This document shows, piece after piece, positions 12,067-62,648 of a stretch of DNA of 64,000 nucleotides. A program made the translations under genes and the position numbers. Origin of the DNA: Paecilomyces variotii (Eukaryota). Under the pieces are notes generated by a model. That model was not told where the DNA came from and searched no databases. It saw only the letters and a list, made by a program, of their open reading frames with translations. Each line of letters opens with the position of its first letter. Within the stretch, counting starts at the first letter, position 1. The stretch lies in the NCBI GenBank assembly GCA_004022145.1, contig RCNU01000005.1; one strand, given 5' to 3'.

Positions 12067-12792
12067 GGTTCTCGTTGGATAACTTCCGTAGTCTCTGCCC
12101 TTCCCAGATATGCACAGCTCGACAAGGATTCGAAAGAAACAACAGCTGATCCCCCAGAGACTTTTATTTCCCCGGACGAGCGCTCAGACGCAAGCACGCT
12201 CTGATCTATTACCCCTCGCCTAAATCGCAGAATAGCCGGCGCGGATCTACGTTCAGGAACCGAGACAGCTATATCGCTATCGGCTGGAGCTTGTCCGGGG
12301 CAGACGGTTCCCACTAATGCTTGCGATCGACCAAAATAATTATTAATAGGCGTATGAGCAACAGGCAATACAAATGGATAATACGCGGCAGCTTGAAAAA
12401 GAGCTTCTGTTGTTGAATTTCGGAGAAGTGCCTAGGCTCCCCGTGACGGATACGGGTTGATGTCATGCAACGATTCATGTGGAGAGCAACATCGTCTGGG
12501 AAGTGGAAATGGAGACGCAACGTGCAGCGCTATTATCCTATTCGGCCGGGTTGGAATGTCTCGCTTTGGTATCATCGGATAAGACGGACCCGTCAGATTG
12601 ATCATTGATACTTTCTCGAAGAACTACATATTACTGCATCTCAAACGCGAGAATGAGAAGCACGCACAAACCAACGGCAGTGATCCGACACGATCTCTAT
12701 GAATTTATGGGTTATTATCTCGAGGATGCGTTACGGTACACCGTCTGCTCAACTCACAGATCGCTAGTTCAATGCGCCTTTGATGTTTTGAG

Positions 12793-13081
12793 TTATCTCA
12801 GCAAGCTCAGACCCTCTAGCGAGGTGCCCCGCCTGCGGGTGGGCTTTTCACTGCGACGGCCTGTATAAGCGCATGCACTAAAGAACTGAGCCAATAATAT
12901 GGCATAAAAGCGACCCACTAACTCCTGGACCAATGGCAGGCCGCGTTTTCACCTTCCTATTTGGGTTTAGCGTATCCGCTCAAATATTATTGGCTCAGGT
13001 TATTGAGCTAATTTGCACTAGTTTCTAAATAGTATAGTAGAAGCACTAATCTTTGGCGAGCGTCTGAGCTTGCTGAGATAA
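12793..13081. mobile_element. MITE-like non-autonomous DNA transposon, 289 bp, 24-bp TIRs, 8-bp target-site duplication GTTTTGAG
   Basis: TTATCTCAGCAAGCTCAGAC (12793-12812) is the exact reverse complement of 13062-13081 and extends to 24 bp with one mismatch. GTTTTGAG lies immediately outside both ends (12785-12792 and 13082-13089). Internal 15-bp inverted repeat at 12886-12900 / 12984-12998; no credible coding sequence. Confidence 0.7.
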
Positions 13082-13486
13082 GTTTTGAGCGCCTTTGATG
13101 TTTTGAATATCTCGGCCGAGAGCTCTCGGAGAGAACATCGAGAACGCTCATTCATCTTCTCCAGACCCACCATCTTCTATACCGTATTAGCTAATCGTGA
13201 GTGACGTCGTCAATATGTATAACTGCAACACTACATCATGTCTGGATATGCTTCAATGGCTATTCGGGATTGTCGCGAATTCAATTCGTCGATGAACTCA
13301 CCATGCTTATTGAGAACGCAGCAAAAACCGGAATCTGGCATTCGGTTCGTTCCGAGTGCTTTCGATCTGATTCCCGGTCTATTATTTATGCATAAAGGCT
13401 GGCAGTATCTATAGATATTTATCACTACAGTCTAGCAACTTGTGAACACTCGAACAATACCATAAACTTCCAGACGAAAAATTGCG

Positions 13487-53900: not shown

Positions 53901-56597
53901 CCCTTCTCGCAAACACCTTTGAAAAGATCCTTTACTACGCTTATGGCGCGGGTGATAGCATGAAGCTGGAATCAAAGATTACCAATGTATTTTCTACATC
54001 GGCGCCGTATGTACTTGATGTCCTTCGACCAAGTTCGAAAGAAGAGCTTCCCTTCAACCCCGTTCTCCGAATAATTCTTGACGGCCTCAACACGCCTACG
54101 TCCACTATATATCTCCGTCCATTGACTGTTATAGAGAGGCAGCTGAAGTCGACACTAAAGCTCTCTATCAAGCTGGTACAAGCCGCACAACTCATTGGAT
54201 CGCCTGCCTCTCTGTTAGAGGAACAGCTGTTCAAGGCAGCGCCTGTTCTCGTCAAGCTATATGGCCTCCACGATAGCTATCGTCTCCTAGTAATCTCGCT
54301 TCTCGACCTTCTCGTTTCTAGGGCAGCTTCCGACCCAGACAATGAGCCGCCCTCCTTACTGGGCCATCTTGGGGCTGAGTCGACTTGCCTCTTCCTTGAC
54401 ATGCTAGCGCAGTTTGATCAGCCTCTGAATGACAGTTCCCTATTCATAGCAATATGGCAGCTGCTATCGACGTTTGTCAGTAAGCGCCAGCAGTGGCTTG
54501 CAGTCTACTTGCTTACCGGATCTTCACCTCGGGAGTCACTGAAGCAAAAAGATGGAAAGGGCAAGGCGCCTGCTATGAGAGCGACTCCCTTCTTTCAGAT
54601 AGCACTCGATACCCTGTCAAAGATCGAACAAGTCGATCCGCAAATCGCGTTGTCCATGTTGGAGTTTGTTTCACGATCTCAGGAGCATTGGCCTTGGGCA
54701 ACGCCGGAGCTGAAGAAACATCCTAACTTCTTCAACGGCATCATCCAATATGTCGCGAAATTGAAGCTAGGAAGTCTGCCTCCACATGAGCAGATATTTG
54801 CAACAAGGATTGCCGCCGTGACGGCTGATCTCTGCACTGTTTATCTACACTCTGCAAAGGAGGCTAGAGACATGACATTCTTCAAGACTCTCATCCCATT
54901 AATCACCTGGTTCGCCAACAATGCTGTCGAAGTGTCCGGTTACAATGCCTCGCTACATGCTAACCTCAGGAAGAATTTTGAAATGAAGTACGCCGGCTGT
55001 AAGCTGCTTGATTTCAAGAGAACGTCATTGGAGCCACGCTTACTTGGACGGGACTACTATTATGACATGAACCTAGGTGAAAAGCTTCTTTCGTATGATT
55101 TCGCTTGGATAGGCTCGAGAAACCAAGGTTTTGCTGAAGAGTTCGAACGTGCCAACCTGAACTTGTCACTAGTGGAAGCACAAGTGGTATGTACACCCTT
55201 CCAATATCTGTTGCATATCTAACCTGTCCCAGAGCCTCCTTCATAGTTGGAAATTCTTCGCTATCGAGCATTGCGCGGATTTTTGCCCCGACAAAGAAGT
55301 TCAGAAATCAATGGCATTGGTTGTCAAAAACTGTCTCGTCGCGAATACCGGAAGCATACCACAGGAAGCAGTCTTTGACCGACTGCAGCAGACTCGAGTT
55401 GACTTTGCCCAGGCTTTGCTTCAACGACTTGTTCAAATTCAGTCAAAGGGTGCTGAAGTCTTCGGGTTGCTCAGTGTCGTCTGGGAAGCTATGCGCGCCC
55501 GTGGTGGAACGTATGAGAATGCCCTCGCCAACGATGATACCGAGTATTACCGCTCGCTTCTGAATGTCCTCTTTTTATCCCTCCAGTTCCATCTGGACGG
55601 GCCTTCTCGGACAGAACCTGAAGTTGTCGGCAAGAAACCCAAGTTCTCGTCGGATACGTCAATAGTACTCGAAGTGGTTAAGGTCGTTGTGGCACAAGGA
55701 TTCCGCACTCTAACCACGTACTTGCATGACGATCCACAGAAGTGCCATCCTCGAGATTTCGCTATACTGACGGCAATCCTGCAAACATGTCTGCAAGTGA
55801 AATATGCGGATCGCTTATACGGACAGATCGCATTCCATATCGAAGACAATGATACTGCCCGATATGCCCTCACCTTGTTTTCATGGTCAGATCAAATCGC
55901 CATCGAAGGCGACCCGATCTACGGAGAGCTCAGTATCTTATTCCTACTTGAGCTGTCAACCGTCCCAATGCTAGCTGAACATCTCGCAGTGGAGGCTGTC
56001 CTGATGAAGCTCACTACGTGCCGACTGACCAATGTCCTGCAGCAGTCGAAGGGATGCGGACCCTTTGACCCGATTCCCAGGCTGCACTCTATCTGGAGTG
56101 GCGGCATCCTTCCGCTATGCATCAATCTGCTCTACCATGTGATGCGCGCCGCACCCGAGGTGGCAGCGTTTCTTAACCAATTTGGAGGTCAGCTCAACAG
56201 AGCATCTGAAAGCTTCACAAGCAGCCACGCGGGCGTGTCGACAACTCAGCCAGCGGGTCGAATCTGCTTGAGCATGGCATCCGAGGCGTACTCCCTAGCT
56301 CTGATCTCCTTTATCCTCGAGAGATTCCGCGAGGCTGGGCCTAGCGCCGGGATAGATATCCAGACCATTCAAGAGCTCAAGTGGGACAAGGGACGCGTCA
56401 AGGAGGACATTGAGGAACTGCTAGGACGCAGGCAGACTCTCCGGGCTCGAATCGTCGCCACCAGCGAGAAGGAGCTCGAGCTAGCGAGGCAAAAGCCACT
56501 TAATGCAACAGCATCTGGTGCGGAGGATCGTTTGGAGGAGAAGATCGTCAACGAACTTAGTGCAGCATTGGTGTGTCTTGGTGGCGAAGTCGAATAA
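50946..56597 (+). CDS. nup188: Nucleoporin Nup188/Nup184; introns 51014-51061, 52020-52078, 55187-55232
   Basis: MAPAPEAYFPSLDKCFSGD start; three GT-AG introns join the 275-, 1030- and 428-aa ORFs into an ~1,830-aa helical protein (ADALWLSQKAKIDEVTALRI, ANLNLSLVEAQ, GDPIYGELS) of Nup188 size and character. Confidence 0.85.
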
Positions 56598-57661
56598 TTG
56601 CCATTATCTTCATGTTCTTCACACATACCATCTTGGCGTTCCACTCTCATGAGTTCTTTCTGCAAACGTGTTCTGTTTTAAATTAGGCGGGGAAGGAGAG
56701 GAGTATCTTTTTCGCAATGGAAGTCGTACCTGGTCTCATGTCCAATGCTCTGGATGATAAAAAGAATCTATTTTTTGATAATTCGTGTTTGGAGGTTGTG
56801 TGTTTCTCTAAGCCACGTAGGCACGATCTACAGGTTGAATCTCGCATATGCAGCTTAAGGAGATGAATTTAAACCACTTTAGTGACTAGTGATATTTAAG
56901 TCTTCTCCTGTCATGATGGAGATTCCGCACAACATATAATGATGCAGTGGAGTCCAGCATATGCGATGCACACATAGTCATACAATGAACAAATAAAACA
57001 TATGAGGTAAAAGACTTGTGTCTGTATTTGTATTAAGGGCAATAAACAAGAATATCATTATTTCCAAGCCCAGTTTTAAAGAGGCCAGTTGTATAGGTAG
57101 TTACTACCATTATATATTCCGTAGTTGTAATAATCACAGCAAATCCCGACTTTTCCCCGTCGGGCAAATTCAATCGACCTCAGGTAGGTAGTCATCTGAT
57201 TCTTTCCATTTGTCCATTTGTTCTTTCCTTCTTGCCACCTTTCCATCTTGATGGGCTTAAGAAAAAATCTGATATCTTCGTTTTTCTTTTTTCTCAAGAT
57301 CGTCGATTTCGGCTATTTCATGCATGTGAAGCGAATCTGGCGCTGTTGGAAAGTAGTGCCACGCTGAGTAATTTTTTTGCTTTCGATGAGTATGTGAACT
57401 ACTGCAGAGCTACTGCAGTACGTACAGAACATGTGGCCTGGGTTTGGGGGCGAGTTTTCGCCCGTGCTCAGCATTTGATTGCGGATACTACTGAAGAGCA
57501 CTATGGAAGTAGGTAGAAGGGTAACGTCCTCCATAGTAGTGTGTACTCAGGACTGTTATGTCCACTTGCAGGTCGATTCTCTCCACTTGTCCCCTTGGTG
57601 GGACGCGCGCACACACATTCTCTCTCTGTTTCTTTCTCTCTGATACCAACACAGAGCCGAT

Positions 57662-59030
57662 CTAATCAGCCCTGCCTACCTACTGTGGCGCAGGGACCCG
57701 CCACACGGGGGGCTGGTTAGCGCTCCAGGCGCCGGGGAGTTCGGCAATGGTGCCAAGTCGGAATGATCCCAAGGCCGCAGTATTATTCGCCGGCGACTAG
57801 AACCGACAAAGAAGCGCCATCGCGGAGTCGAAGCACCGCCACGGGCAGTTATTGGTTAGCCGCCCCGAAATCTGCGTATGCTTCCAGATCCCGAGTCGAA
57901 GAGAGACTAAAATGATCAACTAAAATCCGTATCCGCCCTTCGACCATTATTGGTCTTCGAATATGAGTATCCTATTCCGGGCTGAGCTGAGAGTCGTCCA
58001 TGAGGCGAGACCGCCTTGATTGCTCTATGGTACTTATCTGACCCTGTGTCTCGGCGGCTTTAAGTAACAGACCCCACCGGACGGTGTGCTTTGGTCATGG
58101 GAAGGAAGGTTCGCCCATCTTCTGATGCAGTCGAATAGGTAGACACACGCAGAACTAAGTTAGTCAATGTAGGGGCCTGTGTGGCATACCAGTTAGGCTG
58201 TCTGTTCGTGTTTTCATGGCCCTTACAGGCGCTTCTGCGGTGAGCTGCAGGTTGGCCTCATCGGACTACTATACAGAGATCGTTATGCCCGTTGGTTTGG
58301 TTCACATCACCGTTAAAGTTAACTATAACCAGAGAATCCACCTACCAGCAGGATATTTCGTTGGGCTGCAGATAAAATCTTCAATCGATTGGCCAAAGCA
58401 TGTGGCGTTGTTCATCGAGAGCTGAAAAGTCATGTACTGTCCCAGTTCCTCGGTGCCTAGTGCGCAGGATGAAGGCCGTCATCATCTCGCCGCAGCATAA
58501 TCGTTCATGCTGACAAGATCTATGCAGATCTTATGGTGGACCTGGAGCCCCTCTTGAGGCCAACTTGTAGCCGCCTAACTGTCCTGGACATGTTCCTTTT
58601 TCGTCAATATGTTGCGAAAGGCGGAATCCCCACCACATCCTCAGTTGACTTTAAGCTCAGTTTTTGAGATCCAGGATGCTGTATGGGGCCTCGGCTCTTT
58701 TTGTTCCTCCGAGCGCATCTTCATTAGTAGAACTGAAGCGGTCTCCTATCAGGTCCTCATGGAACCGACAGTGGCCTGAAATCACATTTTCGCCCCTCTT
58801 CGACGTATCAGATATATATCGGTTGTCCCCGAAGGGCTTCCGTAGATTCCTCGTTTGAATCTGCCGTTTCCACGTAGATTATTATCGAGATCATGAGACA
58901 ACAGAGTGCTAGTTTCGTCATTGTCTTAACCTAGTCGATGAAGGAGGTGGCTTGGCTGAGAAAGACACATGCCAGCAACTCCAGGTCGGTGTTCTGTTCC
59001 CATTGGATAACCCATCAACGTGACATGGGC
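57662..59030 (+). ncRNA. Candidate long structured RNA or structured 5' leader; family unassigned
   Basis: Many nested inverted repeats, including a 17-bp helix (58244-58260 / 58555-58571), 11 bp (57662-57672 / 57710-57720) and 10 bp (58168-58177 / 58218-58227). All non-Watson-Crick pairs in them are G-U on the + strand. Preceded by a CT-rich tract at 57618-57641; no credible ORF. Confidence 0.4.
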
Positions 59031-59182
59031 TGCTTCGATTGAAATCCGATTATCTTTCTGAGATTGGCCATCATTTTTATCATGCATTGCCTATCCTGCT
59101 GCTCCCTTGTCTGCTTTCATCATACTTTTCGCAGAACTTAGGGCCACGACGTCGAAGACCCCATTATTCAGTTTCTGGTGAC

Positions 59183-59740
59183 ATGAGCAACGAATCGAGG
59201 ACTCGACCTGAATCCACTAGGAAGATAATCAGTGAAGACAGTCAGACTGGTGGTTGCACCGCTACAGCCGAGATATCAACGCCTGCTTCAGTCCCGCTAC
59301 CGTCAGCTAGTGATATACTCCAACCGCTATCTCAGATGTATCAGGAATCAAATATTCCAAGCAGCGGGGAAGTCGCTGCTCTTTCTCGAGGAGCGAGGGA
59401 GGAGCACCGTGCCTGTGCAAAAGAACCAGCTAATGGACTGGGGACTGATGGAGGATCGAGAAGCTCTAAATCAGGCCCAGAGCCCCTGCTGTACACCACA
59501 GATGAGCACGCAGAAGTTGATGGAGCAAAAACTTCGGAGCAGAATGCATCCAGCGTCACAGTCTCTTCAGTCAGTCCGTTGGCAGAATCGGCTGAACAGA
59601 CACCGTCCGCTCAAACCCATGATGCGGATACAGAGCATCGACCATCAATACAGAAACGGAGTGAAATGGTGCAAGTTATGCGTGAGGTCGACTCTGACGG
59701 CGAACGAACATTTATACGACGAATTGTCGAGTACCGCTAG
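59183..59740 (+). CDS. Small hypothetical protein, Ser/Thr/Glu-rich and disordered, with an ordered-looking C-terminal peptide; true start uncertain
   Basis: 233-codon open frame (59039-59740), first ATG at 59183; ends RSEMVQVMREVDSDGERTFIRRIVEYR; possible acceptor TTTTCGCAG at 59134. Confidence 0.5.
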   Translation: MSNESRTRPESTRKIISEDSQTGGCTATAEISTPASVPLPSASDILQPLSQMYQESNIPSSGEVAALSRGAREEHRACAKEPANGLGTDGGSRSSKSGPEPLLYTTDEHAEVDGAKTSEQNASSVTVSSVSPLAESAEQTPSAQTHDADTEHRPSIQKRSEMVQVMREVDSDGERTFIRRIVEYR

Positions 59741-60506
59741 GTCCAGCTAATCTTCGCTGGTGGCGTTTCGAGTTCCACTGTTCTGGCGCTATAACTGGTA
59801 TCTTTGGGATCAGGATTATTTCCTTCTATTTTTAGGTCATGCCAGCTTGATGAAGACCTATTTCATACTCCCCTGTTTGTGTGCAGCCATGCGGACCTCT
59901 TTCTCTCGGTGTTAACCTACCTGGTGGCATTTGTCTTCTGTCTCTATTTTATCTTGATGTCAGCGACAGTTTCAGAAGATCTCTTTGATGGATTTATTGT
60001 TGCAAGCTGTTAGCCGCAAACCTGTTATTGATGCGATGGCGCTCTTGACATGATATGTGTATACACTATTATGGGAGGCGAGGAGCAACATCTTGGATGG
60101 CGCATCATTATGGTGATAGAAATCGTCCATATACAATTAGTCTTCTCACATATATACATTTGTTTAATAAAATAAAGTATCATCTTGGCACCTTGAGAAG
60201 ACAGATGAACTCCCATACTATGGTTAGTTATTGTCGAAGAGGAATCGAACTTGTCGTTTTGCATTTCCTGGGGAAAGAGCACCCTGCTGAGTCATCCACC
60301 AATCAACTTCAGCCTCTCGTGACATCTTCAGTCCCCGCCGCCGCGGAGCTACCCACGTGTCTATCATATCAAACGCAGCTCGAACGTCTACTGCGTTATG
60401 AACAGATTACACGCATAATACTTACCAGCGAGGGCAAACCATTGGGTGTGGATCCCTCAGTGTCTGATTTGGGAAATAAGAAAAAAAAAAGAAACAGAGA
60501 CTCACG

Positions 60507-61650
60507 ATGACACGCACGATATACCGCCCAGTCGCCGCGGAGGAATCAGACCTGGCGGTCCTGAACCTCTCGAGACTGCTGGCGCGTCTGGAGCATAATT
60601 TGCTTTCGCCATCTGCAGACCTCAAGCCGCTGAGACAATCGGAATTTCATCGGGCGAGAGTTGGAGCAGTGAGTTGAACCCCGTTCTTTCAGCTTCCTTG
60701 AGTTGTGTTTATGTGTTGTCAGACAAGACTTTGAAAGCTAATACCTGTATCCCTAGAACCTCGAATATGCTCGCTCACTTCTCGTCCAAATCGAACGTTC
60801 CCTTCCCAAGATCAAGCCTGTCGACCGCCGGCACAGCATACAAACGGATATCACCCGGAAACGACAGACGCTGAAGCTGCTCAAGGACAGATTAGATGCG
60901 ATTAGTGCAGACGCAGAGATCCTCAGGTCAGAGGGTGACGAGGAGGATATCGACACTGGTATTTCATCCGAGGAGGGAGACGAGGACCTACTAGCTACCC
61001 CCGGTGAGAGTGCGGAGGAGGAGAACGAGGTTGAGAACGAGGTTCCCTTAGCGGAAGGGGTATCACGGCGGTACATCGAAGAGGAAGGGTTACGATCACC
61101 GACTGAGGATGAGCCTGTTCCCTCTACTACTACGACAACGGCTCCGCCGACGGCCACAGCAGCAGCAGCAGCAGCGGCGGCGGCGGCGGCAGCGACCACA
61201 GACACAGCCTTACGAAACCGTCACAATCGCCAACCTACCTTATCACTTACAGCTGACGCTGCCACTGCGACAGCAACCGGATCCGCCCTCCCCACCACCT
61301 CCTCCCCTTCCCTCTCCAAGACGCAAGCCACCGAGTCGGCTCTAGATGCGCACGCCCATGAACAAGAAAGCTTGACCGATTCCCTGCTATCCCTTGCGAC
61401 GCAACTCCGAGAATCCTCACAGTCCTTCCAGACGTCACTCGAGGCCGAAAAGTCCGTGCTGTCACGGGCTGTCGAGGGTCTGGACCGGAACATCACCGGC
61501 ATGGACGCCGCGGGTCGTCGCATGGGGCTCCTGCGACGGATGAGCGAGGGTAAAGGCTGGTGGGGACGCGTGCTAATGTACGTGTGGATATTCGGACTAT
61601 GGCTCGTGGCAGTGGGGATTGTATTCCTGGGACCGAAGTTACGATTCTGA
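60507..61650 (+). CDS. use1: ER Qc-SNARE Use1; intron 60669-60756
   Basis: LNLSRLLARLE..RARVGA|NLEYARSLL N-terminus; SNARE coil EQESLTDSLLSLATQLRESS..LEAEKSVL..RRMGLLRR; C-terminal TM WWGRVLMYVWIFGLWLVAVGIVFLGPKLRF. Confidence 0.88.
61159..61194 (+). repeat. (GCA)5(GCG)5GCAGCG trinucleotide tract encoding Ala12 in the Use1 linker
   Basis: Read directly, in frame with USE1 exon 2. Confidence 0.9.
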
Positions 61651-62648
61651 AAGTGTTGATCAGGCGATCTTGTTTGTGGTTGGTATTACTTCGTCCGTCT
61701 TGTATGTGCATGCATCTGAGAGGCGTTATCTTTTTTTTTTCTGTTTGATTTGATATATCAACCGCCTTCCTTTCATAGTCAGTTTTCAAGATACCTACCT
61801 ATGCGGCAAAGATTCTCTTTCTGGCAATACAATACGATCGAATATATTACCATAATATTATTCTTTCTCTTTACAATCCAAGCAACCAAAAGCCGGTCCT
61901 AGAAGGAATCGAATATACTCCACATTCCTGTAAGAAGAGTCTGACTAAACCGAATGACCGACATGGCATGGACACGTGAACAAGCAACAAAGGAAGCCCA
62001 TATAAGAGATTATTTCAAGGCATCCTCTCATTGTCTTTCCCACCATGTCCCTCTTAATAATGTCGCTCATTTGCTTCTGACTGAGAGTAGACCAAGGAGA
62101 AAAAGAAAATGAGTTTGACGTACGGTTACACACATGATTCTGACTGAGCGCGAGGGGGACGGGGATATCCAGCTTGTAAAATGAACAACACATGAAATCA
62201 CAGAGAAAAAAAAGTGATGCAAAGAGAGCTTTGAACAAGACAGAAAGTGAAAATAAAAAAAAAGATGATATGGAGAAGATAAAATAAACTGGGGCTACGG
62301 GGAAAAGGAGCACACACAGGAAATTTTAGACGTGAAACTCTGGCATCCACTGGCATCCCGGGAGCTCATGGTGCAACATAAATCCCTCCGCCATAGTCAT
62401 GTGATGACACCTGGACTGGTGTTGACAGTGCGACAAAAACCGACCAGATCTCATCTCGAGCGCAAATCACGGGAAGTAAATGTCTCAACGCCAGTAATTT
62501 TAAATGAAACAAGGAAATGACAAGTGAGGTATGGTATGAGAAACAGGGTAATAGGAGACGGCGACAGTGATATCAAATTACGAGGCCACATATGTGTGTG
62601 GTCTGATCTGCGACATATCCTCACCGAGCCAAGCTTCTTCGACGGTCA

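Follow-up and report, generated by a model that had tools for sequence, protein, structure and literature searches.

Fungal lncRNAs (long non-coding RNAs), according to parts of a review published in 2024 (PMC11413187), have intergenic, sense and antisense origins and seem to be without sequence conservation. Here we analysed a stretch of 64,000 nucleotides (nt) of DNA from Paecilomyces variotii (GenBank assembly GCA_004022145.1, contig RCNU01000005.1; hereafter, the window) and, within it, positions 57618-59030, which lie between the genes NUP188 and USE1 and for which an earlier note, made by a model from the letters of the sequence, had proposed a long structured RNA of the + strand. This spacer is non-coding and transcribed. 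It resembles fungal lncRNAs, among them antisense transcripts and those that diverge from a promoter shared with a neighbour, in having no open reading frame (ORF) longer than 88 amino acids (aa) and no match to a protein family, in being unconserved in sequence between species, and in belonging with RNA that is RNA polymerase II-like, spliced and apparently polyadenylated, that probably overlaps a coding gene in antisense and that starts within ~225 nt of the 5' end of a neighbouring gene. It is unlike them in that it is known here from contigs without strand, with strand evidence in its right third only.

Large structured non-coding RNAs of fungi (RNase P, RNase MRP, signal recognition particle (SRP) RNA, small nuclear RNAs (snRNAs) and telomerase RNA) offer another comparison. 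They too are non-coding and transcribed, and the spacer is within the size range of fungal telomerase RNA; however, it has no Rfam match and no 7-mer of (CCCTAA)n, it is unconserved in the nearest relative, and its fold energy is at the level of shuffled sequence. It can also be set beside the relics left by unitary gene loss, in this case of an AMP-binding acyl-CoA ligase (PF00501, PF13193). The spacer lies in the same slot as the intact ligase of three loci from relatives (L006, L007 and L012) and the ligase relics of five others (L001-L004 and L011), and at 1.4-2 kb it is about as long as the ligase gene; unlike a pseudogene relic, it keeps no residual protein or DNA similarity, and descent is not demonstrable. 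A limited literature search found no paper on this locus, and we make no wider claim.

The best explanation, which we hold to be fairly probable, is that 57618-59030 is a species-specific, non-coding, transcribed spacer of P. variotii, that is, a lncRNA or antisense RNA without a selected fold. That the spacer is not a selected structured RNA, taken as a claim of its own, we regard as very probable. Four runs were compared over 55500-62000, all of them as contigs without strand information. Three of these (X2, X5 and X8) come from three studies, X2 and X5 being only guessed to be RNA, and the fourth, X4, is labelled RNA. The intron of USE1 (60669-60756, + strand, GT..AG) is skipped in X2, X5 and X8, which indicates that these runs hold complementary DNA (cDNA). 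In X2, a single contig of 2222 nt covers 57074-59360 and is collinear with the genome except for a skip of 65 nt (57074-58280 is followed by 58346-59360); its depth is 17.3, compared with 21.2 for USE1. Cover by X2 is absent at 56853-57073 and at 60176-60449 (the bin depths match the listed contigs exactly), which makes genomic DNA an unlikely source for this run. X5 gives six contigs, with depths of 5.7-10, over 57443-60195; those at the spacer span 57443-57843, 58033-58252, 58287-58689 and 58776-59414, leaving gaps at 57844-58032, 58253-58286 and 58690-58775. X8 covers mainly 58698-60008 and has no contigs at 56802-57886; we draw no conclusion from these gaps. The spacer is thus present in RNA, collinear with the genome.

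Transcription had been proposed to start at a CT-rich tract, on the + strand, and to yield either a long structured non-coding RNA or a structured 5' leader for the ORF at 59183-59740. The non-coding nature and the presence in RNA are borne out, but the selected fold, the + strand and the start at the CT tract are not. The tract itself exists (57618-57641, + strand); however, the contigs begin 544 nt (X2, left end 57074) and 175 nt (X5, left end 57443) upstream of it, so that it is not their 5' end. The available strand evidence is of the minus strand. A 126-nt intron at 59795-59920 (joint 59794>59921, CT..AC), skipped in both X2 and X5, reads GTAGGT...CAG on the minus strand and has a plausible branch site. 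In addition, an X8 contig (58698-59064) carries 13 extra T before 58698, which points to a probable poly(A) site of a minus-strand transcript at 58698-58703; AATGAA, presumably acting as a poly(A) signal motif, stands on the minus strand at 58725-58720, 17-22 nt upstream of the 58698 site.

From the cover in X2 and X5, the first known exon of the minus-strand transcript is 59921-60195. No more than 225 nt separate its end from the first USE1 contigs (60420-60450), and the minus-strand and USE1 transcripts are therefore divergent. In the minus-strand model the longest ORF with an ATG has 53 aa. What places a minus-strand RNA over the + strand ORF at 59183-59740 is the intron, in two runs, together with the end at the T-run, in one, all of it from strandless contigs. 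The best-supported course for this RNA is a start at or beyond 60195, splicing, passage antisense through the small ORF, and an end that can fall at 58698, inside the spacer.

The transcript model as a whole, which we rate somewhat above even, would run as follows. The spacer would fill the slot between NUP188 and the small ORF in which related Eurotiales carry an acyl-CoA ligase gene. A minus-strand RNA, spliced and polyadenylated, would have its 3' end in at least the right third of the spacer (58698-59030); it would start beside the USE1 promoter (~60195), lose the 126-nt intron and run antisense through the small ORF. Even cover from 57074 (X2) or 57443 (X5) to 60195 in two culture data sets suggests that the minus-strand unit, or a read-through form of it, spans the whole spacer. 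Function, if there is any, would reside in the act of antisense or divergent transcription, interfering with the small ORF or with the USE1 promoter, and not in the helices. We infer both the single long minus-strand unit and its regulatory role.

As for the helices, the six that we tested are all found at the coordinates given for them by the earlier note, and the motifs of the smaller helices are likewise in the sequence. Hairpin 1 (57662-57720, + strand) consists of an 11-bp outer helix with one G-U pair and an inner 7-bp helix, and hairpin 2 (58148-58239, + strand) of a 7-bp and a 10-bp helix. The longest helix (58244-58571, + strand) has 17 bp, two of them G-U, and closes a loop of 294 nt; of all the elements it alone lowers the fold energy, and it is within chance for 64 kb. 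An independent repeat finder returned its two arms (58244-58260 and 58555-58571) as one of 40 inverted pairs in 57500-59200.

These helices had been offered as evidence of selection on an RNA fold, and in this respect they fail, since their counts, lengths and folding energy are within chance in every test but that of one core picked afterwards. When the 1413-nt region was shuffled 300 times with its dinucleotides preserved, an uninterrupted helix of at least 17 bp, with Watson-Crick and G-U pairs and a loop of up to 600 nt, arose in 11 of the shuffles. At this rate about three helices of that length would be expected on the two strands of 64 kb together, and the count in the window, with a span of at most 600 nt, fits: three on the + strand and three on the minus strand, one perfect 20-mer being counted on both. 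For helices of at least 9 bp the shuffles average 67.8 (SD 9.5), and the region has 78 on the + strand and 58 on the minus strand. The folding z-score against dinucleotide shuffles on both strands, a check named in advance by the earlier note, gives the same picture. On the + strand the minimum free energy (MFE) of the whole region is -465.8 kcal/mol, while 30 shuffles gave -460.7 ± 12.6 (z -0.40, with 10 of the 30 as good); on the minus strand z is -0.95, and 4 of 26 shuffles were as good. Fourteen overlapping 200-nt windows, from 57601 to 58901 and with 40 shuffles each, range in z from -1.13 to +1.02 on the + strand and from -1.28 to +1.00 on the minus strand. The helices are what 1.4 kb of sequence with 50% G+C yields by chance. 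As an RNA structure the locus is thus of little importance, the claimed fold having failed controls that were set beforehand.

The strand-specific G-U pairing on which the proposal had leaned holds for the helices that were tested and not beyond them. In the six tested helices, all six non-Watson-Crick positions are G-T on the + strand. In an inverted-repeat set collected blind, with at least 9 Watson-Crick pairs, at most two isolated mismatches and the type of mismatch ignored, 26 near-complementary helices contained 9 G-T and 6 A-C mismatches, as read on the + strand, and 25 others, so that no strand bias is seen (binomial p 0.61); other 1413-nt tiles of the window have similar or larger imbalances. 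The apparent specificity arose because the + strand was searched with G-U allowed. The locus is in this sense a documented case of an apparent strand-specific signal that comes from picking out helices by eye, with G-U pairs allowed, on a single strand, and that is gone under an unbiased count.

Searches for a known RNA family agree with the statement of the earlier note that the sequence could not be matched to RNase P, MRP, SRP, an snRNA or telomerase RNA. An Rfam cmscan of 56500-60500 on both strands, with permissive filters, gave no match at E<=1 among 4227 families, riboswitches and IRESs included, and neither strand of 57000-60200 contains a 7-, 8- or 9-mer of (CCCTAA)n that could serve as a telomerase template, for which complementarity to some 1.5 telomere repeats would be expected, TTAGGG being the telomere repeat that we assume for this fungus. 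A covariance model built from the single sequence of hairpin 2 found only itself in the loci of 10 relatives and the window (183,733 bases), which is a weak test. A scan for promoters and terminators of bacterial type is uninformative for a fungus.

The coding potential of the spacer is low. Its longest stop-to-stop frame has 88 aa (58159-58422), and the six read-through frames of 57000-59200 match no Pfam family. Against the protein collection, two of the four candidates for the 88-aa frame were matches, both of them Logan ORFs (57 and 61 aa; 95-96% identity); in the one that covers the 5' arm of the 17-bp helix, the arm is unchanged at the amino-acid level, which is no test of covariation. 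A decayed transposon was also considered and rejected: the Pfam search brought up no transposase or reverse transcriptase remnants, and the 64-kb window holds no second copy of the spacer.

To compare the locus with its relatives, metagenome contigs were scanned with the C-terminus of NUP188, which gave 12 loci (L001-L012). One of them, L005, is of the same species (99% aa identity), and its contig ends at window position 57537; past the NUP188 stop codon it is the only one of the 12 that aligns. No alignable homologue of the spacer was found in the 11 loci of other species. The nearest relative, a single species represented by L001-L004 and L011 (81% aa identity), has a NUP188-USE1 interval of ~1.95 kb, compared with 3.95 kb in P. 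variotii, and blastn, tblastx and nhmmer --max (E<=100) detected no similarity between the two intervals. Conservation in relatives, another check that had been proposed for the structured RNA, is thus lacking in a syntenic interval that is 2 kb shorter and unalignable.

In three more distant loci (L006, L007 and L012; 66-68% identity) an AMP-binding acyl-CoA ligase gene follows directly after NUP188, on the + strand, and in L007 and L012 the gene order is NUP188, ligase, small ORF, USE1. The interval of L001 (11378-13535), like those of L002-L004 and L011, has no detectable small ORF and carries two relics of an AMP-binding ligase in collinear order; the relics are recognised both by the protein hidden Markov model (HMM; E 1.5e-8 and 0.014) and by nhmmer (E 6.5e-11 and 1e-3). 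The same tests on the P. variotii spacer were negative: tblastn gave a best E of 0.17, not collinear, the protein HMM (hmmsearch --max) scored -5.0 and -4.1, no better than 20 shuffles, and nhmmer had no match at E<=100. From these gene orders the spacer appears to occupy the slot of a lost ligase gene, which remains of that gene or unrelated filler would fit equally well. The locus forms a small evolutionary series, with the ligase intact in some Eurotiales, a recognisable relic in one relative and an unalignable transcribed spacer in P. variotii. New genes, or lncRNAs specific to a lineage, can arise in slots of this kind.

Within the species complex, the spacer varies. The 65-nt segment at 58281-58345 (strand not assigned; ends CG..AC), which lies inside the domain closed by the 17-bp helix, is absent from the 2222-nt X2 contig and from all other X2 cover and is mostly present in X5. 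On the minus strand it begins GTAGGT and has the ends GT..CG. Its ends fit neither a canonical intron, whichever strand is read, nor an intron of the AT-AC type, nor an Ire1-type cut; the skip may be a strain deletion or the product of non-canonical excision or processing. We consider quite improbable the most far-reaching account of the locus, according to which a ~3-kb, P. variotii-specific, spliced and polyadenylated antisense lncRNA arose on the remains of the lost ligase, starts from the USE1 promoter region and controls the small conserved membrane-protein gene in cis, the removal of the 65 nt being real, fold-guided, non-standard processing.

X4 is a close relative whose contigs, of up to 176 kb, are unspliced and DNA-like, with ~1.4% of letters differing over 57674-62000. 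Within the 5' arm of hairpin 1 its match to the window is interrupted, ending at 57664 and starting again at 57674. The loose ends at this break run on for 61-71 unrelated letters, the termini of which are inverted copies of one another, as would be left by an inserted element with terminal inverted repeats; the motif of these inverted ends is absent from the window at up to one mismatch. X4 also lacks 1 nt at 57707 and has 12 additional nt after 57778, these changes being among the 12 of 44 indels that were inspected, together with 40 of 130 substitutions.

Several points weigh against an antisense spacer without a selected fold. The strand evidence is confined to 58698 and rightward, and 57074-58697 is strandless; the one strand hint in that part comes from the 65-nt skip, which on the minus strand begins GTAGGT and is non-canonical at its other end. 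The poly(A) reading comes from one contig end in one run of a slightly different strain (7 of 367 letters differ), and depth is a single figure per contig, which makes the even cover weak evidence. A conserved + strand ORF lies inside the transcribed unit, AATAAA occurs on the + strand at 60166-60171, just before the contig ends at 60175 and 60195, and a + strand mRNA with a long leader may exist beside the minus-strand RNA. As to conservation, the negative result is for the 11 metagenome loci of other species and may not extend to other members of Paecilomyces. Finally, the fold of a 541-nt core (58140-58680) has a z of -2.30 on the + strand, with 3 of 100 shuffles as good, and of -0.79 on the minus strand, with 21 of 100, and the former is lower than that of any of 13 control tiles of 541 nt set at even spacing (-1.10 to +1.92). 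Since this core was picked after inspection, around the 17-bp helix and among more than 200 possible windows, we do not regard its z as significant; another part of the window, which holds a real inverted-repeat element, reaches a stronger z of -3.94.

The + strand signals could instead belong to a transcript from near the CT tract, perhaps from the promoter of the lost ligase, which would be either an independent lncRNA lying upstream or the small ORF's own leader, of very great length, again with no selected fold. A G+C-rich stretch follows the CT tract, the relatives' ligase is on the + strand, as are the four neighbouring genes, one X2 contig joins 57074 to 59360 across the start of the small ORF, and the AATAAA at 60166 stands just before the contig ends. 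However, the contigs start 175 and 544 nt upstream of the tract, a leader that reached the ATG at 59183 from 57642 would contain 28 ATGs upstream of it (57642-59182), which would block scanning, and the only canonical intron of the unit is on the minus strand, as is its only tail-like end, the T-run; we therefore judge such a transcript rather unlikely. Descent of the spacer from the relatives' acyl-CoA ligase, as a fully decayed remnant, concerns its origin and is compatible with transcription from either strand. It is a tentative possibility, suggested by the order NUP188, ligase, small ORF, USE1 in L007 and L012, by NUP188 followed by the ligase in L006, and by the two collinear relics kept in the 81%-identical species; on the other side, tblastn, the HMM (at shuffle level) and nhmmer find no ligase similarity left in P. 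variotii, and unrelated DNA that replaced the gene would explain the spacer just as well.

A genuine P. variotii-specific structured RNA of the + strand, with a functional domain closed by the 17-bp helix, is in our view very improbable. Neither the whole region nor its local windows fold better than shuffles, helix length is within chance and G-U pairs show no bias, no Rfam family and no homologue in relatives was found, 65 nt inside the domain are missing from X2 RNA, hairpin 1 is disrupted in the close relative X4, and the strand evidence favours the minus strand. These outweigh the transcription of the spacer, the difference in z between the strands of the 541-nt core and its standing below 13 of 13 control tiles, and the state of the helices in the whole-region MFE structure, where five of seven checked (six of those listed and the pair at ~58842-58864) are fully formed and a sixth keeps 8 of its 11 pairs, with two absent. 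No better in standing is the proposal that the RNA cover is an artefact of genomic DNA carry-over and the spacer silent intergenic DNA. X2 and X5 are only guessed to be RNA, and X4, although labelled RNA, yields unspliced contigs of up to 176 kb; yet the USE1 intron is skipped in X2, X5 and X8 and the minus-strand intron in X2 and X5, and X2 leaves 56853-57073 and 60176-60449 uncovered while its 2222-nt contig reaches a depth of 17.3, next to 21.2 for USE1. A transcribed, non-coding spacer of P. variotii, with a minus-strand RNA over at least its right third, remains the explanation that we prefer.

The genes around the spacer are as the earlier note had named them, with the spacer between NUP188 and USE1 and an ORF at 59183-59740, and all four neighbouring genes are on the + strand. 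On the left, the last coding stretch of NUP188 (55173-56597, + strand) was identified from its reading frame and a match to Pfam Nup188_C at E 1e-149, and the gene carries the Nup188 domains PF21093, PF21094 and PF18378. On the right, USE1 is recognised by Pfam Use1 (PF09753), the sole match in a Pfam scan of nine single ORFs.

The small ORF (59183-59740, + strand) encodes 185 aa and corresponds to a hypothetical protein of P. variotii. Its product has an identity of 94-98% with hypothetical proteins from strains of P. variotii and of 80% with that of one strain; it is 58% identical to that of the No. 5 strain and 35% identical to a Penicillium protein. In an alignment of these proteins the C-terminal motif, which is common with Penicillium, and several inner blocks are kept across genera, and we therefore take the small ORF to be a real gene. 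A search for relatives by means of this ORF gave 334 pattern matches in metagenome contigs, none of which was confirmed.

Immediately upstream, an in-frame stretch without ATG is open from 59024 to 59182 (+ strand). It encodes a hydrophobic segment followed by RRRRP, which resembles the basic patch and the membrane segment that the homologues from L007, L012 and Penicillium have, and the start Met of the P. variotii small ORF aligns with an inner Met of those proteins. The alignment suggests that the start codon of the longer frame was lost or that a non-AUG start is used. In the relatives represented by X4 and X8, 12 nt are missing from the small ORF at 59499 and 3 nt are added after 59586; both changes are in frame and fit the length differences among P. 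variotii proteins.

Elsewhere in the window, an element that resembles a miniature inverted-repeat transposable element (MITE) was noticed at 12774-13106. It consists of a 289-nt unit between perfect direct repeats of 18 nt (12774-12791 and 13089-13106); the unit has terminal inverted repeats of 24 nt (96%) and, inside, a perfect inverted repeat of 15 nt. A 541-nt window around the element folds at z -3.94, and the long frames on either side of the gap that holds it are divergent.

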